From a virus (lineage: Duplodnaviria > Caudoviricetes), in the IMG/VR virus record IMGVR_UViG_3300037010_001838: 64,000 bases of DNA, one strand, 5' to 3'. Made by a program: the position numbers and the translations under genes. Positions 10,910 through 62,176 of this stretch are shown here, in pieces. The first letter of the stretch is position 1. Every line of letters starts with the position of its first letter. Under the pieces are notes generated by a model that saw nothing but the letters and a program-made list of their open reading frames with translations, was not told where the DNA came from and ran no database searches.

Positions 10910-11254
10910 TTACCAAGAAATTGCCCATATCCACGTTTGAAATTTTGGACCCTCTTCAAAATCATTCACAAGTCCACGAGGAACATAATCAGCATGAATA
11001 TTTCTCCACGATACTTCATACCCCAACTTTCTTAATCTATCCATCACCAATGCTGCGGTTGGATTAGGTTCGGGAACATAACGCACTGATTCGGATTCAA
11101 AAAATGGAATTCCAAAAATCGAAAAGTTACATTCCAAATTCACAAATCCCTTTTCAGCTCGTTCAACCATCTTCGCTTCAAGTTCATCAAGAATTTTTTT
11201 TATCATACGTTCACTATTATCGGCAATTTTTCTTAACTCTTTAGCTGTCTTCAT
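10910..11254 (-). CDS. Hypothetical protein (MKTAKELR...)
   Basis: ATG 11254 with SD AGGAG. Confidence 0.7.
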   Translation of the reverse strand: MKTAKELRKIADNSERMIKKILDELEAKMVERAEKGFVNLECNFSIFGIPFFESESVRYVPEPNPTAALVMDRLRKLGYEVSWRNIHADYVPRGLVNDFEEGPKFQTWIWAISW

Positions 11255-11848
11255 TCCACTTCTCCTATTCTTTGTATCTGTTATTAAAACGAAGGTATAC
11301 AATCAATGAACAAATCAAAAAGAATACACCTCCTGAAAAGTATCCAAATACATTTGGAGTAAACAATGTACAACAACATCCCAATATGAAATAAACCATT
11401 GGGAGTTTATTATAAAGCCAATTTGGTAGCCACATATTACTATCTCCTTATGTCCAAACCAATACACCATTTGCGATTAAATATACCAAGAGTGATACCG
11501 CTGTACCAATTCCCATCAAGTATAGAGTCCCCTTAAAGAAGTGTTGTTCGTTTCCACCAACAAACAGAACAAACAGAGATACTATACCTCCCCTAATCAT
11601 TCCCATCATGAGAGCAGAGCAGAAAAGGTGATACACGTATTGTGTACATTTACGTTTTCCTTATAATGCATAAGATGAAGCATATTGTATATCATAGAGG
11701 GGAATATGTCAACTGTTGATTATAAACAATTTTGGATTTTGGGAAAAAAATTTGCCAAAAAATTTTTGCGCATATGGGAAAAACAGTGCGGTGTTTATTT
11801 TAGGGTGACAAAAAAATCGTGACGCGGGTTGGAAAATAATTGTGGGGT

Positions 11849-12099: not shown

Positions 12100-12408
12100 C
12101 TACAAAGGAATCTTGATACAAAGTTTGTCGTAGGGTCCATGACCATAATACGAATGAGCCTCAAACCAATACACTTGACCAGTTACTCCATGATTGGACA
12201 ACAGTTGTTCAACTTCTTGTTTGATATGTGCCTTGATCTTTTCAGGAACCTTACAATTGAACTTCGAATACGGTACCTTTGAATATGGTACCCTCGAATA
12301 CGATACCCTTCGATGGGTCACACCCTTGTCGTTGTATGTACTGTAAACATCCCAACCATAGCTACTACAAATGGTACGAACTTCTTTATGAAAAGTTATA
12401 TTGGACAT
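12100..12408 (-). CDS. Hypothetical early protein
   Basis: ORF with own promoter and SD. Confidence 0.7.
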   Translation of the reverse strand: MSNITFHKEVRTICSSYGWDVYSTYNDKGVTHRRVSYSRVPYSKVPYSKFNCKVPEKIKAHIKQEVEQLLSNHGVTGQVYWFEAHSYYGHGPYDKLCIKIPL

Positions 12409-12468
12409 TGCTCATCTCATTCTCGTTACAGTGAAGACATCTTACCTTAATTTGGGTTTAAAGTCAAC

Positions 12469-12741
12469 CTAAATTTGTTCAGGAGTATCTGGTCTTGTTT
12501 TCACTTTTCCGTCTGTGACCGGTCGGATGATGTACAACGTGTTGTCATGTTCGATTTTCCAACCATACTTGACGGGCACAACAGAGTATGTGACAATGTA
12601 GGTTATTTGTTGGTCAGTCAAGTCCTTATCCAACCATTTGAAATAATTCGACACACATTCACGAAGAGTTTTTCCTGTGATCTCTTTCACGTTGAAAAAG
12701 CTACGTTCATGAAGAGGGACTTCAATGATTTCGAGTTTCAT
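12469..12741 (-). CDS. Hypothetical early protein
   Basis: ORF with own promoter. Confidence 0.65.
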   Translation of the reverse strand: MKLEIIEVPLHERSFFNVKEITGKTLRECVSNYFKWLDKDLTDQQITYIVTYSVVPVKYGWKIEHDNTLYIIRPVTDGKVKTRPDTPEQI

Positions 12742-12818: not shown

Positions 12819-13256
12819 TCAGCCGATAAGGGCGGCAACTCGTTTAATTCCTTCAGCCTTGTTGCGGAACTTGACAATCTGTTGGGCATCGCTGACCTTA
12901 CTGTTGTACAAAGCAACCAGTTCGGAACCGGTCATCACCTCAAGGTTGATCTTTTCAGATTTTTGTGTGACACTTTGAACGGACTTGTTGGCCTGTTCTT
13001 TTGCACGATGTTTTGCAACATATTCACCAGTGACCAAAGCGATCATTTCAAGATACGATTCTTTTTGAACAGTTCCAGTTGACCACAGACCACTCTTGCA
13101 GTTGGCGTAATAAGTACTTGCACCTGCCATCGAAAGGCCACATTGTTCACTGAGAATTGCAAGAGCTTCTTTGCGCTTCATGTCAACGGGCAGTTGGTTG
13201 AAAGCGGAAACGAAAATCGATTTCTTGGAGGTCTTGGAGGTCTTGGTGTTGGTCAT
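12819..13256 (-). CDS. Putative DNA-binding protein (GASTYY-domain family)
   Basis: GLSMAGASTYYANCK; shares two domains with 33088-33477. Confidence 0.7.
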   Translation of the reverse strand: MTNTKTSKTSKKSIFVSAFNQLPVDMKRKEALAILSEQCGLSMAGASTYYANCKSGLWSTGTVQKESYLEMIALVTGEYVAKHRAKEQANKSVQSVTQKSEKINLEVMTGSELVALYNSKVSDAQQIVKFRNKAEGIKRVAALIG

Positions 13257-13630
13257 TTTGTTTCCTTTCGATTAACGTTTCAGTGAGACCATTGTCACAC
13301 AAACTGTGGTTGAGGACAACAATTAGTTACAAATTCTTTCAATGTATTCCAAAACTTCTTCTTCAGTGCCCTCAATTTCAGGGCAGCCACCAAAATCGGC
13401 ACAGATGAGACCATTTACTCCAAGTGAAACATAAATTTTGATTTCAATGAGGACATTGTATCTGAATTAGGGGATTTGGTCAACTGTTGACTTTAGGGTC
13501 AAAACATGAGATAATGTACTCGAAATCAGGAATTCAGGGGAGAGGTATGGAGTTTAGAGAACAGGTCAGTTTTAACGAAATGAATAAAAGTCAACGAATA
13601 TTTCATCGTTGACTTTTTCTTTAATTATAA

Positions 13631-24075: not shown

Positions 24076-24418
24076 GCTGAAGTTGTTCTATTTGAACTTG
24101 GATCGCTCGACGTTTCATTTGGTTAATTGCGATCACTTGTTTAAGTTCCGAGACTGGAATAAACTTGTCTATTTTATATTCAACTTCTGCAATTCCAATT
24201 CCAATTCCAGAAACTTCTTCGTACATGTAGTCACAACCCTGAAACATCTCTTCTATGTTTGGACATGTACTGTGAATTCCGGTGGTGTTCATTTGCGGCG
24301 ACCAATAAGGGCGTCCACCTGTACCATGATCAACCAACGCAAATATATCATTTCCGTAGTTTTTGTCAATTCCAACAATTACATATCCGATAAACATTTC
24401 ATTCTCCAGTCTCTTCAA
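24056..24418 (-). CDS. Hypothetical protein
   Basis: ORF coupled to the RNA ligase stop. Confidence 0.65.
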   Translation of the reverse strand: MKRLENEMFIGYVIVGIDKNYGNDIFALVDHGTGGRPYWSPQMNTTGIHSTCPNIEEMFQGCDYMYEEVSGIGIGIAEVEYKIDKFIPVSELKQVIAINQMKRRAIQVQIEQLQRELDEI

Positions 24419-25526
24419 TTTTCATATCTTTAAATCCCAATTCTTTCCACTTACTCTTCATGAACTGTTTGTAGTCAGGACTCTTCCCAAGATACAAATT
24501 CATTACACGAGAGAAATACATCGGTGAAACTTCAGCCTGACCTTTAACAGCATAGTCTTTTCGGTCAAGGTGTTTGTTCATTTCATAGAACGTCTCAACT
24601 TCATTTACCATGCTGTTAAACATATGATCAACCTTCACCTGCATTTGATCAATCATCATCATTGCAACAGCATCAGTATAGAACATTCCACGAAGATCAT
24701 CAACACCTTCATCAAGAATACACTCAAACAATCGACGAGGATTGTTGACAGAATCTTTCGCGTGGTGCAAGGAAATGTATTCATCACACTTCACTTTGAC
24801 GAATTTGCCCTGTTGATACTCAATCACAAATCCTTCAACACCATGCATTAAGGCGACTGATTCAACGAATGATGTCGTAGATTCTACGTCAATAACGTCA
24901 ACCCAGTGATTCAACACATTGGGGTAATCCACCAGTTCGTCTTTATTAACAAAACGACCGGTTTTGTTGTAGCGAATGTTTAGTACAGTGAGGTGAGTTT
25001 CAGGATAGCCAATAACGATTCTATTTTCGGGACCACATAGTTCCATGTTGACTGTTAGATCAGCATGAGCCAGGTCCAATAGTTCATCACTGAACGATTT
25101 GTTTTTTGACAATAAAGCATATGCTTGTGCCACTTGATTAGAGAACAAAGAAGTTTTTGATTTAATACCCAACCTGTTGTTGTGAAGGAACGTTGAGATT
25201 AAACTACCATCCTTTTTCACCATGATCTGTTTTGTGTTAGAAAAGTCAATATCCATGGTGAATGGATTCTCACGCCAGTTGAAGAATTTGGGTAATACCC
25301 AAGAAGCCAATCTGACCGGCTGAGCATTCTCCCCTTGATTGGTGACTTCAAACAAATGACCACGACATTCCAGTGCATCAGGAAGAAGAAAATCAGAATA
25401 AGAAGCAAGGCGATACGTAAAACACCGATACCAGTTGTTGTCCAGTTGTTGGTCGACAAAGTAGAAGGCTTCGTTATTCACAAGAGCCATCAAGTTGTTA
25501 TACAATTCAGTCTGACGTTCATTCAT
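24399..25526 (-). CDS. rnlA: T4 Rnl1-like RNA ligase
   Basis: FTYRLASY, ECRG, PKFFN, motif I KKDGSLIS, EGFVI, VKVKCDEY, LH; ATG 25526 with SD GGAG. Confidence 0.88.
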   Translation of the reverse strand: MNERQTELYNNLMALVNNEAFYFVDQQLDNNWYRCFTYRLASYSDFLLPDALECRGHLFEVTNQGENAQPVRLASWVLPKFFNWRENPFTMDIDFSNTKQIMVKKDGSLISTFLHNNRLGIKSKTSLFSNQVAQAYALLSKNKSFSDELLDLAHADLTVNMELCGPENRIVIGYPETHLTVLNIRYNKTGRFVNKDELVDYPNVLNHWVDVIDVESTTSFVESVALMHGVEGFVIEYQQGKFVKVKCDEYISLHHAKDSVNNPRRLFECILDEGVDDLRGMFYTDAVAMMMIDQMQVKVDHMFNSMVNEVETFYEMNKHLDRKDYAVKGQAEVSPMYFSRVMNLYLGKSPDYKQFMKSKWKELGFKDMKIEETGE

Positions 25527-25929
25527 GTAAGATTCTCCAAGAGTTGTCGTAATATACGCTAAAAAGTTGTTGGGGTCAACGTGTGGTATCATACACACCA
25601 TCAAGCGGAGGAAACCATAATGTCCAAAAAAGATCCAACGACCACGTACACTCCCAAAACGCTTATTGGAGGAGATAATGAATGCTTCCAGTTGAACGAA
25701 ACAGATGTGGCTTTATTGGTTGAGCACGTTAATGGTTGTAGTGAAAAATCTTCGCATCATTCCTTGGGAGGATAATGCGAAGAAGGGGAACAAGTTTGAG
25801 TGTTAAGATTTTCTGGCGGTGCTCTTAATTTGATCTTTCAAATACATCAAGTCGGTAAAGTTTTTCACCAACGCAGTACTTGTTCCACAGTGCAGGAACA
25901 TTATCTACCAATTAGGAGAATGAGTCAAC

Positions 25930-28582: not shown

Positions 28583-29590
28583 ATGCGACATCTTGCTACT
28601 ATTCGAAAAATCGATGACATTCAACCTATCCCTGATGCTGACGCTATTGAAGTTGCGTTGATTGGAGGATGGAAAGTTGTCGTCAAAAAAGGTGAATTTG
28701 AACCTGGTAACCTTGTGATATATTGTGAAGTTGATAGCTTCATCCCACACGACATTGCCCCTTTCCTGACTAAAGGTGATAATGCTCCTTTTGTATACGA
28801 AGGTATCTCTGGGGGACGTCTGCGCACTGTTCGATTGAGGGGGCAAGTGAGTCAGGGCCTTGTTCTCCCCATCCCCACATCCATGTTGGTGTTTAATGAG
28901 GGTGAAGATGTCACCGACCTCCTTGGCATCGTCAAGTACGAACCTCCAATCCCAGCTCAACTGGCTGGTGTAGTTAAGGGAGCTTTTCCATCTGTATTTC
29001 CCAAGACAGATGAAGAACGAATTCAGAATCTCACTAGTAACTGGGAAGAATTGAAGCAACTAACTTATGAGGTTACTGAGAAGCTTGAGGGTAGCTCGAT
29101 GTCTGTCGGTCGAATTGATGGTGAGTTCATCGTATGTTCTCGGAACTTGAACTTGAGAGAAACTGAAGGTAATTCTTTGTGGGCTCAAGCTCGTAAGTAT
29201 AACATCGAACAGCAGTTGATTGAAACGGGCTTGGATGATATCATTATTCAGGGTGAAATTATCGGAGAAGGTATACAGGGTAACCATTATGGGTTGAAGG
29301 GTCAAGACTTCTACGTGTTCGCGATATATGACATTAAGTTAGGATGTTTTCTTTCCCCTAACCAGCGGCGTCAATTGTGTGAAGAACTTGGACTTAAGCA
29401 CGTCCCCGTAATTCACGAAGAGTATGTGTTTCCACCTGAAACTTCTGTTCAGGATGTGTTGTCGATGGCAGATGGAACGAGTAAACTTACTGGTAAACTC
29501 CGAGAAGGAGAAGTATACAAGCGAGTTGATGGACGAGAACATTGGAAGGCTGTCAGCAATGAATATCTTTTTAAATACGGAAGAGGTTAA
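28583..29590 (+). CDS. RNA ligase, Rnl2/DRB0094-like
   Basis: N-terminal OB-type MRHLATIRKI...GWKVVVKKGEF; PKTDEERIQN; TEKLEGSS; QGEIIG; REGEV; KAVSN. Confidence 0.88.
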   Translation: MRHLATIRKIDDIQPIPDADAIEVALIGGWKVVVKKGEFEPGNLVIYCEVDSFIPHDIAPFLTKGDNAPFVYEGISGGRLRTVRLRGQVSQGLVLPIPTSMLVFNEGEDVTDLLGIVKYEPPIPAQLAGVVKGAFPSVFPKTDEERIQNLTSNWEELKQLTYEVTEKLEGSSMSVGRIDGEFIVCSRNLNLRETEGNSLWAQARKYNIEQQLIETGLDDIIIQGEIIGEGIQGNHYGLKGQDFYVFAIYDIKLGCFLSPNQRRQLCEELGLKHVPVIHEEYVFPPETSVQDVLSMADGTSKLTGKLREGEVYKRVDGREHWKAVSNEYLFKYGRG

Positions 29591-30590: not shown

Positions 30591-30910
30591 GCCCCGATGG
30601 TGAAATAGGTAGACACAAGGGATCGCATGACGCTAGTCCCCCTCAATTGGAAACTTTGAGTAAACTATGGGTTAATTCGGGAGAGCCTTTAAAATGGCAA
30701 TCGCGAGCCAAGCAAGTGATACATCACTTGAAGGTGTAGAGACTACTGGAGAGGTTTAGTCCTCTTAATAACCAGCTTTGAACGCCCATTACCTGACCAA
30801 ATGATGTTGAAGGTAAAGAGATAGTCCGGGCTTGAAGGAAACTTCGAGACACAACCGCTTAAAATCCCTCGCTTTCGAGCGTGCCAGTTCAAATCTGGCT
30901 CGGGGCACCA
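30591..30910 (+). tRNA. tRNA-Leu(UAA) interrupted by a group I intron
   Basis: Exon 1 GCCCCGATGGTGAAATAGGTAGACACAAGGGA; exon 2 CTTAAAATCCCT...TCGGGGCACCA. Confidence 0.85.
30623..30857 (+). mobile_element. Group I self-splicing intron, ~235 nt, no ORF
   Basis: Core elements GGCAATCGCGAGCCAAGC, GAAGGTGTAGAGACTA, GGTAAAGAGATAGTCC; IGS AGTCCC; GAAA-capped P9; terminal G 30857. Confidence 0.85.
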
Positions 30911-43269: not shown

Positions 43270-44028
43270 TAAATCATTTCAAAAAATATGTCAAATTATT
43301 GTTTTCTTCTTTGTTAAGATAAGTTTACTAGTAAACAAATAAGTATTTTCTCCAATTTCCTTTTAACTCTTTGTTTATTCGAGGATATAAAATTGTCCCA
43401 ACTACCATTAAAGTCACAAAAACCTAGTTACATTGTACCAACCGTGTATTCATGCGGGTTTTCAATCCATCAAACCCCTGTATTGACGCGGGTTATTTCT
43501 TCTGTTAAAACAACAGATTATCTGTGTGTTGACATATTCCTCACACTAATATACAATGACGTTAATAATATATTGATATCATAACAAAGAGGTATAAAAC
43601 AAATACTTCATTCACTTGTGACATCATGAACTTTTGTAAAAAGTAGATAACCCTTTAAGTAATTTTTAATTGGTGAACTGCTTGAAAAAATTTTAACTTA
43701 TATCACATTAGAGTATTCATCTAAAGAACAACAAGTCTACAATGAATGGCATGAGCGTGATGTAATAGATGGATATCAACAAAGAAGCAATTAAGCCTAA
43801 TTCGTATTTTAATCAGGCAACAATAGCGAATGGACTTGATTCGAAAGTGGGATAAGATTTGGGATACTAGTAGTGGCCCGTGTTAGTTCCTGTATCACCA
43901 CCAACAAGGTATTTTTGTAACAGCACACAGGGAAGCAGAGATATAATACATTGATTAACCTTCTTTATTTAATAACAGGAGAAAATGTGAAATGAATATT
44001 AATTTAAACAAAGAATTGGGTTCACGAA

Positions 44029-44310
44029 ATGACTGAAACTGGTTATCGATATCTTGGGTATTACGTTCCCCAAAACACAATTGATGAACTACGTCGATAT
44101 GCGTTTAATGGAGTCCCGTTGGGAGGCTTTTTAGAAGCAGTCGTGTCTAATGATTTAGTTAGTGCAGTCAGTAGAGCCGACTCCTATAATCAAAATAATC
44201 TTCCAGCTCTTGTTGTGTATGTATACAATGAACTTCCTGCCGAATGTTGGGGTTCTAGAGAAACGTATGAACATTGGCTTGATAAATTTAGAGAAAATAC
44301 AAATGAATGA
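44029..44310 (+). CDS. Hypothetical phage protein
   Basis: GVPLGGFLEAVVSNDL...AD..N...P.ECWGS. Confidence 0.75.
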   Translation: MTETGYRYLGYYVPQNTIDELRRYAFNGVPLGGFLEAVVSNDLVSAVSRADSYNQNNLPALVVYVYNELPAECWGSRETYEHWLDKFRENTNE

Positions 44311-44464
44311 TCAACAAAGACAAATCACTACTCTTATTGTGATAGATTTGGTGTTTATAGAATTTGCAGCAGTTGAGTTAGAACAAGAATAGCAACCGAT
44401 TAGTACAGATCCTCTGAACGGTACAAACATTTTACTTTCGGGTGAAATGTATTTGTCCAGGTGA
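44303..44464 (+). pseudogene. DUF551-like fragment with in-frame TAG
   Basis: EQE*QPISTDPLNGTNILL resembles the WQPIETAPKDGT..ILL motif with TAG (44390) at the Trp. Confidence 0.5.
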
Positions 44465-44696
44465 TTGGTGAATTAAGACAGGTTACTGGTCTTACATAGA
44501 TAAACAATTTATTTTATATGGAGGGTTGTGGACACCAAGATGCTCAGGCTTATTGGGGTAAAGTTGTTCTCGTATCAGGAGAGTGGTGGGATATTAAAAG
44601 ATGGACAGGATGTTCGGAAACGATTGGTGATAACAACATTGCATCTACCAGATGAGCAATTGTTAGAGCTGCGGCAGAAATTGGAAAGGAAGTTAA

Positions 44697-46266: not shown

Positions 46267-46575
46267 TAAAATAATATTGATGGTTTCGTATTAAACGGTC
46301 AGTTTCTCGTGTCGTTTGATGTTGGGTATGGGATATTCTCCACAAAACTCAATTTTTGGTTTTGTTTATATTGTTTAGAACTTTAACGTGAAGAGTGTAA
46401 CTCATTATGATGTTTACTTATTGTGTAATATATAGGTAATTATATACAAAAGACGATAAAGTATTAACAGAAATTTAACTGGGAACGTTTTGTGTAGATT
46501 ATCGTATATACAGAACAATCACCTCTTTTTATTTTGAGGTGTGTGTTCCAATAAATGGTCTGAAACGAAGAATAA

Positions 46576-46908
46576 CTATCTCCTCATTTTTGCAATGTCT
46601 TCTGCTTCTTCTTGAGAGAAAACTGGAATAGCGTTACTTTTGTGCATTGTACTAATCCCTACAATCTTATCACCTGTATAAACGGGTGATGGAATTTTTG
46701 CTGTATCTCCAATCGTTGGTTTGTGACTATTAATTGGAGGTGGTAGTCTGTCTTCAGGGATTCCTAATTTATATGTTGATTTTGGAGGAGGAGAATCTGG
46801 ATTACATTTCCATTTCTGGTTAATGTAATCCGTCATCGCCTTATCGGCCTTTTGTTTCGCTGATGATTTCTTTTTCCGTTTAGATGAAGACTTCATGTAC
46901 ACAATCAT
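46576..46908 (-). CDS. Basic phage protein
   Basis: YTGDKIVGISTMHKSNAIPVFSQEEAEDIAKMRR. Confidence 0.75.
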   Translation of the reverse strand: MIVYMKSSSKRKKKSSAKQKADKAMTDYINQKWKCNPDSPPPKSTYKLGIPEDRLPPPINSHKPTIGDTAKIPSPVYTGDKIVGISTMHKSNAIPVFSQEEAEDIAKMRR

Positions 46909-46909
46909 A

Positions 46910-47656
46910 TCAAACCTCCACTATGAAGTTTGGATTAAACAATACACTTTCATTTCCATATCCCCTTTGGTTTGAAATAATTCGCGTTTTCCCAATCATT
47001 CCATCAAAATTGCTGTGAGTGTGTCCATAGAACCATATACCTTCCCAACCCATAAACTCCTCCATGTTTTCAGTGAAATATGAATTTAAAACATTCGAGC
47101 CATATTTCGGGTCCACGGTTATGGGGTGAGGAGCAAAATGAGAAATTACAACTCGTTTCTGCCCTTCAGTTTCTTTAATCCAATGAGCCAATTCCCGACG
47201 AAAGATTTCATGTTGTTCGATATGGTTTTGTGTTTTCCAAAGAATACGAGGGTCATCCGATACCCGAATTAAAATAAAATCATTGATTCCCCGTTCCACC
47301 TGAAGTCGGGCCAATGCGTCTGTGGTTCCATTCAATGTGAATTGAGTAAACATTGTTCCGCCAAAGAAGTTAATATCATCAATCTTCGTTGAAGAGTTAT
47401 TGAGAAAATGAAAGTTCGGAAACTTGGTTTCTAATTCTGTGTGATAAGAAATAACATCATCCACCAAAGAATGGTAAAATTCATGGTTCCCTATTACACA
47501 CAAAATTTTAACACTAGAAGGAATTTGAATTAAAAACTTATCAAGTCGATTCCTAGTATGTATATCACCAGACAGAATGAGTACATCTTCTCCGTCGTAA
47601 GAATACTTCATATCATATCCTTCAAGGTGGAGGTCTGACAATTGTTTAATTTTCAT
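46910..47656 (-). CDS. Calcineurin-like metallophosphoesterase
   Basis: SDLHLE, GDI, GNHEFY, HFAP, GHTH. Confidence 0.9.
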   Translation of the reverse strand: MKIKQLSDLHLEGYDMKYSYDGEDVLILSGDIHTRNRLDKFLIQIPSSVKILCVIGNHEFYHSLVDDVISYHTELETKFPNFHFLNNSSTKIDDINFFGGTMFTQFTLNGTTDALARLQVERGINDFILIRVSDDPRILWKTQNHIEQHEIFRRELAHWIKETEGQKRVVISHFAPHPITVDPKYGSNVLNSYFTENMEEFMGWEGIWFYGHTHSNFDGMIGKTRIISNQRGYGNESVLFNPNFIVEV

Positions 47657-53824: not shown

Positions 53825-54322
53825 ATGAAATTGAATGAAATCACAGAAACTCAACCTGAGATGGTTATGTTGGTAGGACTTCCTGGTTCAGGCAAATCCA
53901 CATATATCGCTCAGTTAAAAAAACATAAGAATTATGTTGTTATCTCAACAGATGATATTTTGGAACAAATTGCGAAAGACTCTGGTATTAGTTATTCGGA
54001 TGCTTTCAACAGTTATTACAAAGAATCAGAAAAGAAAATGTTTATACAGTTGAAACAAGCTATCAACAAAAAACAGAATATTATTATTGACCAAACGAAC
54101 ATGACAGTTGGGTCTCGTAGTCGGAAGTTGGGACTTGTTCCAAACAGTTATACGAAGATTGCTGTGGTGTTTAGTGTGGATTCAGCAGAACTTCAGCGTC
54201 GATTGGATAATAGAGAAAAAGAAACTGGAAAACGTATTCCTTCTTCCGTAATCAAGAGTATGAGAGAAGCATACCAAGAGCCAACAAAAAGCGAAGGTTT
54301 TGCGGAAATTATTAAAGTTTAA
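53825..54322 (+). CDS. P-loop kinase, polynucleotide-kinase-like (AAA_33)
   Basis: MLVGLPGSGKST, STDD, IIIDQTN, R...R lid. Confidence 0.8.
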   Translation: MKLNEITETQPEMVMLVGLPGSGKSTYIAQLKKHKNYVVISTDDILEQIAKDSGISYSDAFNSYYKESEKKMFIQLKQAINKKQNIIIDQTNMTVGSRSRKLGLVPNSYTKIAVVFSVDSAELQRRLDNREKETGKRIPSSVIKSMREAYQEPTKSEGFAEIIKV

Positions 54323-54327
54323 AATAT

Positions 54328-54540
54328 TTAATTTGAAACTGTTAGAAGAGCGGGGCACCACTCAGGTGCTCTATCTCTTTCATACCAACAATTTGAAATT
54401 ATTTTATTGTTAACTCCACAGACTACTTGTATTCCTCGGTCATATTCTTCTGGCGTATTACAGTAGTAATCAGTTATTAATTGAGTACATCCTTTACAGT
54501 GATATGTAATTGTCATTGATGGTCCAAAATTGTTTTCCAT
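54328..54540 (-). CDS. Small Cys-rich protein
   Basis: CKGC...C...PEWCP. Confidence 0.55.
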   Translation of the reverse strand: MENNFGPSMTITYHCKGCTQLITDYYCNTPEEYDRGIQVVCGVNNKIISNCWYERDRAPEWCPALLTVSN

Positions 54541-56798
54541 TATCTCACCTTTGTTGTTATGTCTTCATACACCCGATTGTGAGTGTTATTCACTCTAATA
54601 AACGTTGCACGTTTTGAAAGTTCCTTTAGTGTTTTACTTCCTGTATATGTACACGTACTCCGAACCCCACCTAGAATATGGTTAATTGTATCTTTAACTG
54701 GTCCTCGATATGGAAGTTCGATTGTTCGTCCTTCACTCGAGCGATATTCAGCCAAACCCCCACTGTGAGCTTCCATTGCTGTAGATGAACTCATCCCGTA
54801 GAATTGGACAAACTTACGCTCTACTTCCAAACACTCAAGAGAAGAACCATCAATATCTTTTATAACTTCGTTAGTTTTATACCACTTCGAACTTACTTCA
54901 CCTCCACCTTCGTCGTGTCCAGCGAACATTCCACCACTCATTACAAAATCAGCGCCACCTGCAAATGCTTTTGCAAAGTCTCCAGGAGTATTACATCCCC
55001 CATCGGAACACAACCTTCCGCCTAATCCATGAACAGCATCAGCACATTCTATAATTGCACTCAATTGGGGAAAACCAATTCCAGACACTAACCTTGTGGT
55101 ACAAACTGAATTGTGAACAATCATGTTGTTTGCAATGAAACTGTGGGTTGGGTGATCAATTTCCAAATCGTAGACGGGAACCTCACACTCTGTTGGGTTT
55201 TCAATTTCAAGTATTTTTATAACCTGATAATGTGAAAGATGTCTTTTTTTGTGAGAGGTCGCCAGAAAACTTCGATATCCATCTTTTCGGGGGTGTTGCA
55301 TAGGATATGAAGACCGTTTCCCGTTGTTTGACATATTTGGGAAACTCCCAAATATATTAAACGTAATCCAGCTGAATAGTTCCATGAGTTGTTGTGACGT
55401 GTTGTTAAAATTAACCTGGCCTTCTTTTGTAATGTGGCCGTCACTATCAACTAATCCATCATACAATCCCCGCAAATATTCTGTGTTGGTGCACATGAAT
55501 TGGTCTGGAAGATGTTTTTCATGGAACTTTCCAAACTGTTGGAAAAATTCTTCCCACTGTTTACTATACAAGGTGATCGTGGTCAACGTTTTCCGTTTAT
55601 TAGAACATACTGGGATTTTACCCGTAACCATCTCAACAGCAGACATTAATTTAACTACATGATGTTGATCTCTTGAGTTTATATACCACTCAACACCTTC
55701 AGAAAAACTTGAAAATCCCCTGCTGTTGGTTCCTTTTGTTTTTCTTGAAGTACCATCTCCAAGAAAAAAACCAAACACATAACCAGTGTTGTAATCAGAT
55801 TTAACAATAGTGTTATAATTATCCAAATGCTCTTCTCGTATAAAATAACTTGAAATATCGATATGAAAACTATCTGGTGTTTCCCAATTAATATTGATGG
55901 GAAGTAAAGCTACATCTTGTCGTATTTCACTCACCGGTTTCCATTTTATTTTTTCCTCTCCCAAACGAGTAGGAACCTCCAGCGCCTTTTTATACCCTTT
56001 GCTTTGTAGTGTTGTAATACTAATAGAATTTAGATCACCTACGTAACAATGATGGTCAGGAGTTAGTCTCAACGGAATGTTGAAGTGATCATGTTTTATC
56101 TGTGTTGTTTTCTTATATCCTGTGGTATAAGCGGATAACACAGTTGCTGGTTCTCCAGTACTCGTAATTATACGATCCCCAGGTTGAACATCTTTGATAT
56201 TTTTATAAACACCACTGGACATTAAAATTCGAGCATCACCCGTTAAACACCCACTGCCTACTCCAACCTTGATGATATCTGCACCAGATAATACTAATTG
56301 TTCTGCCATTTCAGGTGTAACAACGTTACCAACAAGAAGAGTTGTGTTTGGATATTTGTCTCGTAATTTAGTTACAGTAGATACAAAAGTTTCTGTATAC
56401 CCATTAGCAACGTCAACACACACATTTAAAGGAGGTCTGCCAAACATTTCGATGAAGTGTTCAAGCTTATCGAGGTCACTTTGAGACGTTCCAACTGAAT
56501 AAAAAATATATTGTTCAAATGAGGGATTGTTTTTATAAAAATCTACAAGTTGAACTACTGGATAATGTTTATGTAATGCTACCATCATTTTAAATTCAGC
56601 AAATCGTTCCGCCATTTCAAAAGTTCCAACTCCATCCATATTTGACGCTATAATTGGAATACCAGTCCATTGTTGGTGAGAGTATTTGAATGTGAACGAC
56701 CTTTCAAGAGACACGTCTTTGCGTGAAGTTAGTGATGACCTTTTTGGAATAAGTAGCACATCACCAAAATCCAATTTAACATCCTCTACTATTCTCAT
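54540..56798 (-). CDS. guaC: GMP reductase with intein
   Basis: KLDFGDVLLIPKRS, ASNMDGVGTF, DVANGY, KVGVGSG|SVCTTR, FYGMSS, YRSSEG. Confidence 0.92.
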   Translation of the reverse strand: MRIVEDVKLDFGDVLLIPKRSSLTSRKDVSLERSFTFKYSHQQWTGIPIIASNMDGVGTFEMAERFAEFKMMVALHKHYPVVQLVDFYKNNPSFEQYIFYSVGTSQSDLDKLEHFIEMFGRPPLNVCVDVANGYTETFVSTVTKLRDKYPNTTLLVGNVVTPEMAEQLVLSGADIIKVGVGSGCLTGDARILMSSGVYKNIKDVQPGDRIITSTGEPATVLSAYTTGYKKTTQIKHDHFNIPLRLTPDHHCYVGDLNSISITTLQSKGYKKALEVPTRLGEEKIKWKPVSEIRQDVALLPININWETPDSFHIDISSYFIREEHLDNYNTIVKSDYNTGYVFGFFLGDGTSRKTKGTNSRGFSSFSEGVEWYINSRDQHHVVKLMSAVEMVTGKIPVCSNKRKTLTTITLYSKQWEEFFQQFGKFHEKHLPDQFMCTNTEYLRGLYDGLVDSDGHITKEGQVNFNNTSQQLMELFSWITFNIFGSFPNMSNNGKRSSYPMQHPRKDGYRSFLATSHKKRHLSHYQVIKILEIENPTECEVPVYDLEIDHPTHSFIANNMIVHNSVCTTRLVSGIGFPQLSAIIECADAVHGLGGRLCSDGGCNTPGDFAKAFAGGADFVMSGGMFAGHDEGGGEVSSKWYKTNEVIKDIDGSSLECLEVERKFVQFYGMSSSTAMEAHSGGLAEYRSSEGRTIELPYRGPVKDTINHILGGVRSTCTYTGSKTLKELSKRATFIRVNNTHNRVYEDITTKVR
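55110..56249 (-). mobile_element. 380-aa intein with LAGLIDADG-type endonuclease domain
   Basis: Starts CLTGDARI, ends IANNMIVHN, +1 Ser; blocks GFFLGDG and GLVDSDG. Confidence 0.92.
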
Positions 56799-59289: not shown

Positions 59290-59318
59290 TTGACTTTTAT
59301 AAATAAGTCATATATACT
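59290..59318 (+). promoter_or_regulatory. Promoter of tRNA cluster 2
   Basis: TTGACT-17-TATACT with TATAAATA inside the spacer. Confidence 0.85.
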
Positions 59319-59354
59319 TATAACACTGAATTAATTACTTAAAGGATTTACAAA

Positions 59355-59450
59355 ATGAACACAAACGGATTAGGTTATTGTCTATCACTCGGGTCTTTAT
59401 CCATATTGGATAAGAGCCAGGTCGCCGTTTGGGGAATTACCAAGATGTAA
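59355..59450 (+). CDS. 31-aa attenuator leader peptide MNTNGLGYCLSLGSLSILDKSQVAVWGITKM
   Basis: SD AAAGGA at 59341, ATG 59355, TAA 59448; overlaps attenuator segments. Confidence 0.8.
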   Translation: MNTNGLGYCLSLGSLSILDKSQVAVWGITKM

Positions 59451-59503
59451 AGAGAAAAAATCCCAAAAGAAAGCCTGGCTCGAAAGACCCAGGCTTTTTT
59501 GTT
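59392..59503 (+). promoter_or_regulatory. Transcription attenuator (1:2 protector, 2:3 antiterminator, 3:4 terminator)
   Basis: 1:2 = 59392-402/59408-18; 2:3 = GAGCCAGG 59414-21/CCTGGCTC 59474-81 plus TTTGGGG/TCCCAAA; 3:4 = AAAGCCTGG 59470-78/CCAGGCTTT 59489-97 plus T-tract. Confidence 0.8.
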
Positions 59504-59536
59504 GTAAACTGTTATTTAAAAATTTGAAATATTTTG

Positions 59537-59655
59537 GGGCATGCGGCGAAGTTGGAGAGTCGCGGCGGACTGACTAGAGAGCATTGGTTTTCCAGTGTTC
59601 TCGACTAAATCCGTTCCCTCGTGGTGAGTAGGTTCGATTCCTACCATGCCCACCA
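59537..59655 (+). tRNA. tRNA-Tyr body with a 33-nt hairpin insert in the anticodon loop
   Basis: GGGCATG/CATGCCC-ACCA; GCGGA-CTG[...]TAAA-TCCGT; insert hairpin GAGAGCATTGG/CCAGTGTTCTC. Confidence 0.75.
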
Positions 59656-59661
59656 ATTTAT

Positions 59662-59747
59662 GCGCTAGTGCCGGAGTAGACGAACGGAACTGCCTGCAAA
59701 GCAGATGGTGAAAGCCCACGTGGGTGCAAATCCTACCTAGCGTTCCA
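59662..59747 (+). tRNA. tRNA-Cys(GCA) with long variable arm
   Basis: CTGCAAA loop; U73; V-arm GGT-GAAA-GCC; T-loop TGCAAAT. Confidence 0.8.
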
Positions 59748-59754
59748 AAATAAA

Positions 59755-59844
59755 GGGGAGTGAAATAAGGCTAGGTGGTCCTGGCGCAGGGTTGTAGCTC
59801 CTGTCCCTCGTGGCAAGAAGTTCGATTCTGTCCTCTCCCCACCA
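59755..59844 (+). tRNA. Atypical tRNA-Tyr(GUA)
   Basis: TTGTAGC loop; 6-bp/4-nt D-arm GCTAGG-TGGT-CCTGGC; ACCA end. Confidence 0.6.
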
Positions 59845-59853
59845 AAATTTAAT

Positions 59854-59930
59854 ACCCTTCTACGCTAATTGGTAACGCGGCAACGCTTAGAACGTTGTGG
59901 TTCTCAGTTCGAATCTGAGGTTGGGTACCA
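59854..59930 (+). tRNA. tRNA-Leu(UAG), short variable loop
   Basis: CAACG-CTTAGAA-CGTTG; ACCA end. Confidence 0.8.
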
Positions 59931-60061
59931 AGTTTGTCCTGTTGTGTGTTGTTTGGAACAATCGCTTTGTTGGTGGTATCTGGCTATTCAAACGAACCAT
60001 AATTCGATACACAAGAAAACAGTTAGAACGTACATTTATAAAGATTAAAACATGATAAATT

Positions 60062-60144
60062 GCCCTGGTGACAAATGCAAATTGGTACAGCTACTGCGCT
60101 AAGAACGCAGGTTTTTACGGGTTCGACTCCCGTCTGGGGCACCA
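60062..60144 (+). tRNA. tRNA-Leu(AAG), expanded D-loop, short variable loop
   Basis: CTGCG-CTAAGAA-CGCAG; ACCA end. Confidence 0.75.
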
Positions 60145-60152
60145 AAAATATT

Positions 60153-60600: not shown

Positions 60601-60691
60601 GGAGAGTAGCGTCCATGGTGGACAAACTGCCTAGAAAGCAGTCGCCGGCATCTAAGTAGAGCCGCTGGTTCGATTCCTGTACTCTCCGCCA
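60601..60691 (+). tRNA. tRNA-Ser(AGA), 8/4 fold
   Basis: 8-bp acceptor GGAGAGTA/TACTCTCC; CTAGAAA loop; long V-arm; G73. Confidence 0.8.
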
Positions 60692-60792: not shown

Positions 60793-60876
60793 GCCCCCGG
60801 TGACAAATGCAAATTGGTACAGCTACTGCGCTAAGAACACAGGTTTTTACGGGTTTGACTCCCGTCTGGGGCACCA
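60793..60876 (+). tRNA. Second, slightly degenerate tRNA-Leu(AAG)
   Basis: Near copy of 60062 with TTTGA T-loop and a stem mismatch. Confidence 0.6.
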
Positions 60877-60882
60877 AAATTA

Positions 60883-61837: not shown

Positions 61838-61960
61838 TGTTGTGTGAGGGGGATTGGTATACCCCGGCGGTGGAATCATAGTGGGGAGCTCTGTGAAAAC
61901 AGACTAAAATAGTAACCCTTCCAGTAGCTTGTGTAGGTTCGAGTCCTACCACAACAACCA
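61838..61960 (+). ncRNA. 123-nt tRNA-like RNA with expanded central region
   Basis: TGTTGTG/CACAACA-ACCA; D-arm GGGG-ATTGGTATA-CCCC; canonical T-arm; no clear anticodon loop. Confidence 0.55.
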
Positions 61961-62176
61961 ATTGTTGACTTTTACTCTCCATTAGTGTAAAGTATCTTTA
62001 CTTTAAATGTTTGTTGATAAGGTGAACTGTGTCGGAACGTGATTATAAAGAACTTCGAAAAATCGCAAACCAGTTTGTTGATTACAACCTAATACAGTGT
62101 TGCGCAGAACTTGCAGCTATAAGTAACAGGACAGGGGGGAAAACCCCGTTCTTTTGGACTTAAATTAAAAACAGGA

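Follow-up and report, generated by a model that had tools for sequence, protein, structure and literature searches.

Results

A tRNA-Tyr gene interrupted in its anticodon loop

Can a phage tRNA-Tyr gene whose anticodon loop is interrupted by a hairpin still provide a decoding tRNA, and if so, by which route would the hairpin be removed and which anticodon would be left behind? To our knowledge, bacteria and the viruses that infect them are thought to remove tRNA introns by self-splicing only. The gene lies in a 64,000-nt stretch of DNA (hereafter, the window) from an uncultured, T4-like jumbo phage encoding baseplate proteins, tail-fibre proteins and an RNA ligase 1 (Rnl1), the last with at most 43% identity to that of any cultured phage. 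A near-identical relative was also available (G002; IMGVR_UViG_3300035181_001013; 178.8 kb, about 52% complete, 97-98% identical to the window), which overlaps window positions 23265-64000 and then extends downstream.

The gene occupies positions 59537-59655 of the plus strand and adopts the bacterial class II tRNA fold that is usual for tRNA-Tyr, with acceptor, D and anticodon stems of 7, 4 and 5 bp, respectively, a long variable arm, a canonical T arm (GTTCGATTC), and a 3' end where A73 is followed by a CCA encoded in the gene (Table 1). Its minimum-energy structure is a cloverleaf (-48.8 kcal/mol; z = -3.41 against shuffled sequences). The first-pass annotation of this DNA had described a 40-nt anticodon loop carrying a 33-nt hairpin insert with GACUA on both sides, and both the sequence and the predicted fold agree with it: the loop reads CUGACUA, then an 11-bp stem closed by a UUUU loop, then GACUAAA. 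The gene holds no continuous 7-nt loop CUGUAAA, which arises only once positions 59573-59605 are taken out. When introns were allowed, ARAGORN reported a tRNA-Tyr(GTA) of 86 nt with a 33-nt intron after G34, and the gene was reported neither by ARAGORN at default settings nor by Rfam. Since standard tRNA finders miss genes of this kind, phage tRNA repertoires are under-counted.

Table 1. Window coordinates of the interrupted tRNA-Tyr gene, the elements preceding it and the candidate RNA-processing genes
Feature	Position	Strand	Description
Sigma-70-like promoter of the tRNA array	59290..59318	+	TTGACT, 17 nt, TATACT; consensus match only
Leader ORF	59355..59450	+	31 codons; from translation
Intrinsic-terminator-like hairpin	59472..59500	+	7-bp GC-rich stem, 10-nt loop, then U run; read directly from the sequence
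tRNA-Tyr 5' exon	59537..59572	+	Acceptor 5' strand, D arm, anticodon stem 5' strand, C32 U33 G34
Insert, candidate mini-intron	59573..59605	+	33 nt: ACUA, hairpin, GAC; between G34 and U35
Insert hairpin with UUUU loop	59577..59602	+	11 bp, two G-U pairs
tRNA-Tyr 3' exon	59606..59655	+	U35 A36 A37 A38, anticodon stem 3' strand, variable arm, T arm, acceptor 3' strand, A73, CCA
T4-type RNA ligase 1 with T4_Rnl1_C domain	24399..25604	-	Candidate sealing enzyme
Rnl2-family RNA ligase, N-terminal OB domain	28583..29590	+	
P-loop kinase (AAA_33), polynucleotide-kinase-like family	53825..54322	+	Candidate 5'-end healing enzyme
Calcineurin-like metallophosphoesterase	46910..47656	-	Possible 3'-end healing enzyme

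In the predicted fold of the precursor, the anticodon stem and the insert hairpin are separated by a symmetric 7 x 7 internal loop, both 7-nt strands of which are unpaired. Two bonds have to be broken in order to obtain CUGUAAA, and each of them has one helix ending 3 nt upstream and the other beginning 4 nt downstream; because this spacing holds at both, the two candidate cut bonds are related by a two-fold axis. As the two G-U pairs of the insert hairpin are both present on the sense strand, the hairpin pairs fully only as the RNA strand of tRNA sense.

The interrupted gene is identical in the near-identical relative. Given that an independent assembly carries the same insert and a third sample carries a diverged form of it, the insert is not an assembly artefact. 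The lack of differences within the gene is otherwise uninformative, since a single base differs between the two phages over positions 59290-59930 (about 640 nt, from the promoter through the Leu(UAG) gene). ARAGORN finds 44 tRNAs covering all 20 amino acids in this relative, and the interrupted gene is its only well-formed tRNA-Tyr. The hairpin occurs once in the window (zero occurrences expected by chance); the insert is likewise present in one copy in the window and one in the relative, and is absent across 1.1 Mb of other phage loci. Being single copy, it is not a dispersed repeat.

In agreement with the proposal that the interrupted tRNA-Tyr is the first gene of the array after an attenuator, it is preceded by a leader ORF and a terminator-like hairpin, the latter passed over by a terminator scan that allowed loops of 8 nt or less. 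Leader codons 5-18 (GLGYCLSLGSLSIL) specify only Gly, Leu, Tyr, Cys, Ser and Ile, six amino acids that are also the isotypes of downstream tRNAs. The leader contains one Tyr codon (UAU), directly followed by one Cys codon (UGU), which is the order of the first two tRNA genes of the array.

Conservation of the insert in a diverged phage

A second carrier was found by pattern scans of IMG/VR at positions 11004-11120 of a 35-kb fragment of another jumbo phage (L096; IMGVR_UViG_3300048831_000083). The sole protein clearly common to this fragment and the window is a NadR-like adenylyltransferase-Nudix protein with 59% identity, which indicates that the two phages are well diverged. The insert of the second carrier is 31 nt long and interrupts the same G34-U35 bond (CUG, ACAC, a 7-bp stem with a 10-nt loop, CAC, UAAA). 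Both inserts begin and end with AC, have four unpaired nucleotides before the stem and three after it, and share the stem core AGCAU/GUGYU with a U-G pair; they otherwise differ in stem and loop (11 bp and UUUU in the window, 7 bp and 10 nt in the second carrier). From these shared features, we read the two inserts as homologous. The GACUA direct repeat is not kept in the second carrier, where only AC remains at each end of the intron.

Nine differences separate the exons of the two genes. Six of them make up three compensatory pairs (acceptor pair 5 and two D-stem pairs), and the other three fall in the variable arm. In both genes, all four main stems remain intact. The loop CUGUAAA is present in 9/9 insert-free relatives, one of which belongs to the cultured Alishewanella phage Slicko01 and the other eight to contigs of jumbo phages. 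In an 11-sequence alignment, 93.9% of cells pair and 13 pairs change on both sides, a result equalled by none of 500 shuffles. The first-pass annotation had named a recent, non-conserved lesion as the outcome that would speak against an intron; a homologous hairpin at the same bond in a diverged phage, together with intact exons that carry compensatory changes, points the other way. Sequence comparison thus supports an insert that behaves as a maintained mini-intron and not as a recent lesion. If the hairpin had entered both genes independently and recently, the intact exons would be uninformative on selection after insertion.

Exact and degenerate pattern scans of viral contigs in IMG/VR returned as carriers only the near-identical relative and the diverged fragment; matches in L103-L105 were due to chance and protein-coding, and the single match of one metagenome scan was also due to chance. 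A scan of genome contigs returned only ordinary Gracilibacillus tRNA-Tyr genes, and the interrupted tRNA-Tyr was absent from 80 loci surrounding homologues of a 167-aa protein encoded in the array. In all collections scanned, the insert is therefore carried by only two lineages, which weighs against the splicing reading given below.

The surroundings of the gene in the second carrier include several endonuclease-type genes. An HNH endonuclease ORF (L096 10483-11040) extends into the interrupted tRNA-Tyr on its 5' side, overlapping the first half of the gene, a Seg-like GIY-YIG gene (11182-11811) comes after an apparent truncated 5' part of a tRNA, and a further Seg-like gene lies at 12103-12726. 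The same fragment (13139-13262) and locus L098 (8903-9032) hold homologous class II tRNA-like genes with two-hairpin inserts of 34-41 nt, in which the loop of the first hairpin contains CUUAAA.

Known intron types, mobile elements and host nucleases

Several familiar explanations were considered for the insert and rejected. A group I intron does not fit a lone 33-nt hairpin that has no P3-P9 core and no match to RF00028 even at E<=10, while the genuine group I intron of the tRNA-Leu of the window (30619-30848) scores 61 bits with Rfam. The insert itself has no Rfam match, consistent with the earlier judgement that it is too small for self-splicing. The same annotation could not draw a bulge-helix-bulge (BHB) motif, and we reached the same result: the canonical orientation (CUGA against GACU) forms 0/4 pairs, and the mirror orientation (ACUA against UAAA) forms 2/4 pairs in the window and 0/4 in the second carrier, so that a 4-bp helix is obtained in neither.

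A dispersed palindromic or MITE-like repeat was ruled out by the absence of multiple copies, and an IS200/IS605-type mini-element by the presence of one hairpin in one copy. Excision by RNase P and RNase Z was rejected because the hairpin is not tRNA-shaped, its stem is only 7 bp in the second carrier, and cleavage would miss the required junctions by 4 and 2 nt; for RNase III, the stem is too short. Finally, a deletion between the GACUA repeats was dismissed, as the loop left behind would have 9 nt and the second carrier does not keep the repeat.

A possible protein-dependent splicing route

The first-pass annotation had suggested that RNA ligases and a kinase of the phage might process the insert, and such enzymes are indeed encoded: an Rnl1, a second ligase and a P-loop kinase, together with a metallophosphoesterase that may act on 3' ends (Table 1). 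In T4, the T4_Rnl1_C domain directs the ligase to broken anticodon loops. The near-identical relative also encodes a HAD_SAK_2 phosphatase and an HD protein. Neither tRNA_int_endo (PF01974) nor RtcB had a match in this relative, which covers about 52% of the genome; an absence from half a genome is weak evidence. We know of no case of non-ribozyme tRNA intron splicing in bacteria or phages.

The arrangement of the gene suggests how such a route might operate. The precursor would fold into a normal cloverleaf whose anticodon stem leads into the 7 x 7-nt internal loop, with the intron hairpin at the far end of this loop. A protein endonuclease, encoded by either the phage or the host, would then cut each strand 3 nt downstream of the end of a helix (CUG|AC and AC|UAAA). 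Healing of the resulting ends would fall to the kinase and phosphoesterase of the phage, and sealing of the exons to its tRNA-specific Rnl1, yielding the canonical bacterial tRNA-Tyr loop CUGUAAA. The two-fold geometry of the cut sites would be what a dimeric, structure-reading endonuclease requires. This geometry is kept in the second carrier despite the reduction of the stem from 11 to 7 bp. It speaks against this route that the two proposed cut sites have no sequence context in common beyond AC.

We therefore give about even chances to the reading of this locus as a working tRNA-Tyr(GUA) gene in which a conserved hairpin mini-intron separates G34 from U35 and would be cut out by a protein, with Rnl1 sealing the exons. 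The sequence data show the structure, the site and conservation of the insert, selection on the exons, which product is to be expected, and that the ligases and kinase are encoded, and from these we infer the splicing, the cut positions and the enzymes. The broader proposal is more tentative, with chances somewhat short of even: phages of this kind may possess a protein-only form of tRNA splicing, neither ribozyme nor BHB/EndA, in which a hairpin set on a 7 x 7 loop would be cut 3 nt after each helix and kinase/phosphatase and Rnl1 would together act as the splicing ligase system. If this were true, the known RNA repair kit of phages would have a second, constitutive job in tRNA maturation.

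Another interrupted tRNA occurs in the near-identical relative at 66175-66290 (L090 6175-6290). Here, positions 37 and 38 are separated by a closed hairpin of 31 nt (loop CUCGAG|G, flanks of 6 and 1 nt), the anticodon is probably CGA, and no CCA is encoded. Because of this 37/38 site and these 6/1-nt flanks, a single simple geometric rule fails to cover all inserts. Asn and Lys tRNA genes compared in this relative and in a Logan contig are uninterrupted, and a pattern scan for hairpin-interrupted Asn and Lys genes gave no match.

Anticodon of the product and alternative readings

The first-pass annotation had also held that the register of excision would set the anticodon, with tyrosine (GUA) and amber-suppressor (CUA) outcomes one base apart. 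Its arithmetic is correct: with 2, 3, 4 or 5 nt retained from the 5' side, the anticodon becomes CUA, GUA, GAA or GAC, respectively. This is not evidence in itself, since any intron yields another anticodon once its register is shifted. The claim that the register decides the anticodon found no support, as the loop CUGUAAA of all nine insert-free homologues is restored only by the GUA register; the expected product is consequently Tyr(GUA) and not an amber suppressor. A variable or regulated register, by which one gene would give rise to either tRNA, appears highly improbable. It would profit from the last base of the intron being C in both carriers, such that a pair of cuts placed one base upstream gives CUCUAAA in both. 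Against it stand the GUA anticodon of all homologues, the Tyr codon of the leader, which is UAU, and the presence in the near-identical relative of a dedicated, well-formed 74-nt class I tRNA with the amber anticodon CUA (46568-46641; L089 6568-6641; 64 bits). There is also no sign of TAG recoding, given that treating TAG as a sense codon lengthens ORFs less than treating TGA or TAA as sense, and on this comparison a role of the insert in a TAG recoding system was rejected.

The remaining alternatives dispense with splicing. T4-like phage tRNA arrays are hot spots of homing endonucleases, T4 segB being an example, and the gene may simply be unspliced and either dead or dispensable, with a small hairpin lodged in the DNA of its anticodon loop that would be neutral (the host tRNA-Tyr being sufficient) or would shield the site against homing endonucleases of tRNA genes and travel with them. 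In the second carrier, the HNH ORF that abuts and enters the interrupted gene and the Seg-like GIY-YIG gene next to it fit this scenario, since with such neighbours the insert could spread or persist by protecting the endonuclease target. Several degenerate tRNA-like genes in the array (59755-59844 and the duplicates at 60061 and 60793 among them) and the lack of a detected splicing enzyme in the near-identical relative point in the same direction. We nevertheless regard this reading as unlikely, because three compensatory and zero disruptive changes in the main stems separate the two carriers, both of which keep exactly CUG...UAAA; the insert occurs in a single copy, a constraint acting on the RNA is suggested by its G-U pairs, the leader contains a Tyr codon, and the gene is the only clean Tyr in the otherwise complete 20-amino-acid set of the relative.

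Alternatively, the 119-nt RNA might itself be functional as a tRNA look-alike that does not decode, retaining acceptor, T and D domains and identity elements; it could then serve as a regulator, or it could occupy an anticodon nuclease of the host or a tRNA-binding defence protein in the manner of a decoy or sponge. The insert sits exactly on the G34-U35 bond that some anticodon nucleases cut, such as colicin E5, which cleaves it in QUN tRNAs. The cloverleaf is under selection according to the 11-sequence alignment, another long tRNA-like RNA is present in the array (61838-61961), and phage tRNAs are known to counter tRNA-targeting defences (PMC10264068). However, a decoy would not require both halves of a perfect CUGUAAA loop to be kept, the very loop geometry that a nuclease would recognise is abolished by the hairpin, and the phage would be left without a Tyr decoder even though the set of its relative has decoders for all other amino acids. 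Such a role thus seems improbable, and a spliced tRNA-Tyr(GUA) is the reading that we prefer.

Relation to known systems

Group I introns, such as that of the tRNA-Leu of the window (30619-30848), likewise split the anticodon loop of phage tRNAs, and the classic group I intron of tRNA-Leu(UAA) also inserts at 34|35. With the short introns that EndA/Sen enzymes remove in archaea and eukaryotes, the insert shares its small size, its place in the anticodon loop, two-fold related cut sites and, as proposed here, a dependence on protein for its excision. It differs from the BHB substrates of these enzymes by the absence of a 4-bp central helix, by a mirror-image loop polarity and by a tRNA body of bacterial class II. 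A functional parallel would be the tRNA repair of T4, in which PrrC cuts, Pnkp heals and Rnl1 seals: the window phage likewise encodes Rnl1 with its C-domain as well as kinase and phosphoesterase functions, and the proposed junction, also in the anticodon loop, is only one bond away from where PrrC cuts in the T4 system. The T4 pathway, however, mends one nick inflicted by the host on a host tRNA, whereas here two exons would be joined after the removal of 33 nt.

Introns termed "enigmatic" were previously described in the tRNAs of Lak megaphages, Tyr(GTA) included, and were guessed to be common in large phages (Devoto et al. 2019, PMC6784885, Table S6). They are the nearest published case: these are non-group-I inserts in the anticodon loop of jumbo-phage tRNAs, tRNA-Tyr(GTA) among them, which are kept between genomes, were detected only with a eukaryote-style intron search and whose splicing route has no explanation (PMC6784885). 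Similarly, the insert studied here is a non-ribozyme insert in an anticodon loop, is conserved between related phages and is bordered by sequences that together restore a normal tRNA. At 93 nt, the Lak Tyr intron is longer; it is predicted to follow position 36/37 and contains a T-arm-like element, GGTTCGAATCC (PMC6784885), whereas that of the window and of its diverged relative is a plain hairpin of 31-33 nt at 34|35, in the window in a T4-like phage that uses the standard code. No similarity to the Lak introns was seen in sequence, and the insert has no tRNA-like element. In the literature searched, neither short introns made of a plain hairpin nor a route by which phage tRNAs might be spliced were described. 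Judged by its sequence, the insert is a previously undescribed form of these known, unexplained phage tRNA introns, both real and conserved.

A conserved hairpin in the only good tRNA-Tyr of a full set would imply either a protein-dependent splicing route or tRNA look-alikes that are deliberately non-decoding. If protein splicing is real, Rnl1 and the kinase would represent its ligation half. Either answer bears on why T4-like phages carry RNA ligases, as well as on the nature of the "enigmatic" introns of huge phages.

Other features of the tRNA array and its surroundings

The array contains a number of unusual tRNA genes besides the interrupted one. The second gene (59662-59747, plus strand) is a tRNA-Cys(GCA) of 86 nt with a long variable arm and a class II-like body, which is unusual for Cys; a tRNA-Cys with a long variable arm is found again in another jumbo phage (L100 3559-3650, minus strand; 92 nt), where it adjoins the tRNA-Tyr. 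It is followed in the window by a second Tyr-like gene (59755-59844, plus strand) with the loop UUGUAGC (anticodon GUA) and a variable arm that resembles that of the true tRNA-Tyr. This gene has a 6-bp D stem and a 4-nt D loop, as in tRNA-Sec (21 bits to RF01852), and only 3/5 of its T-stem pairs; it is probably a decaying tRNA-Tyr paralogue. One base differs in it between the near-identical relative and the window, so that an anticodon-stem G-U pair of the window is G-C in the relative.

Further downstream on the plus strand, the gene at 59854-59930 combines a class I body of 77 nt with the anticodon UAG, for the Leu codon CUA, and may not receive Leu, since the long variable arm is absent. 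A Ser tRNA with A34 (AGA) lies at 60601-60691 of the same array. Two duplicate tRNA-like genes (60061-60145 and 60793-60877, plus strand) read CUAAGAA in the loop (anticodon AAG) and are odd in the D region; the anticodon stem of the second one contains a mismatch. The tRNA-like RNA at 61838-61961 (plus strand) is about 120 nt long and has a good acceptor stem, D arm, T arm and CCA; in place of the anticodon and variable arms it has about 66 nt of extra-structured sequence, to which no anticodon is assignable. Homologues occur in other phages (L055 1703-1813; L073 2164-2274).

The 167-aa protein encoded within the array is a Zn-ribbon protein. A tRNA was found within 5 kb at 21/80 of the loci of its homologues, and a general linkage of this protein to tRNAs was accordingly discarded.

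An IMPDH/GMP-reductase gene of the window (54540-56798, minus strand) is split by an intein with a LAGLIDADG domain, and a TnpB/IS605 OrfB-type gene (Cas12f-like) is located a few kb downstream of the tRNA array in the near-identical relative (43521-44648; L111 14634-15761, minus strand).
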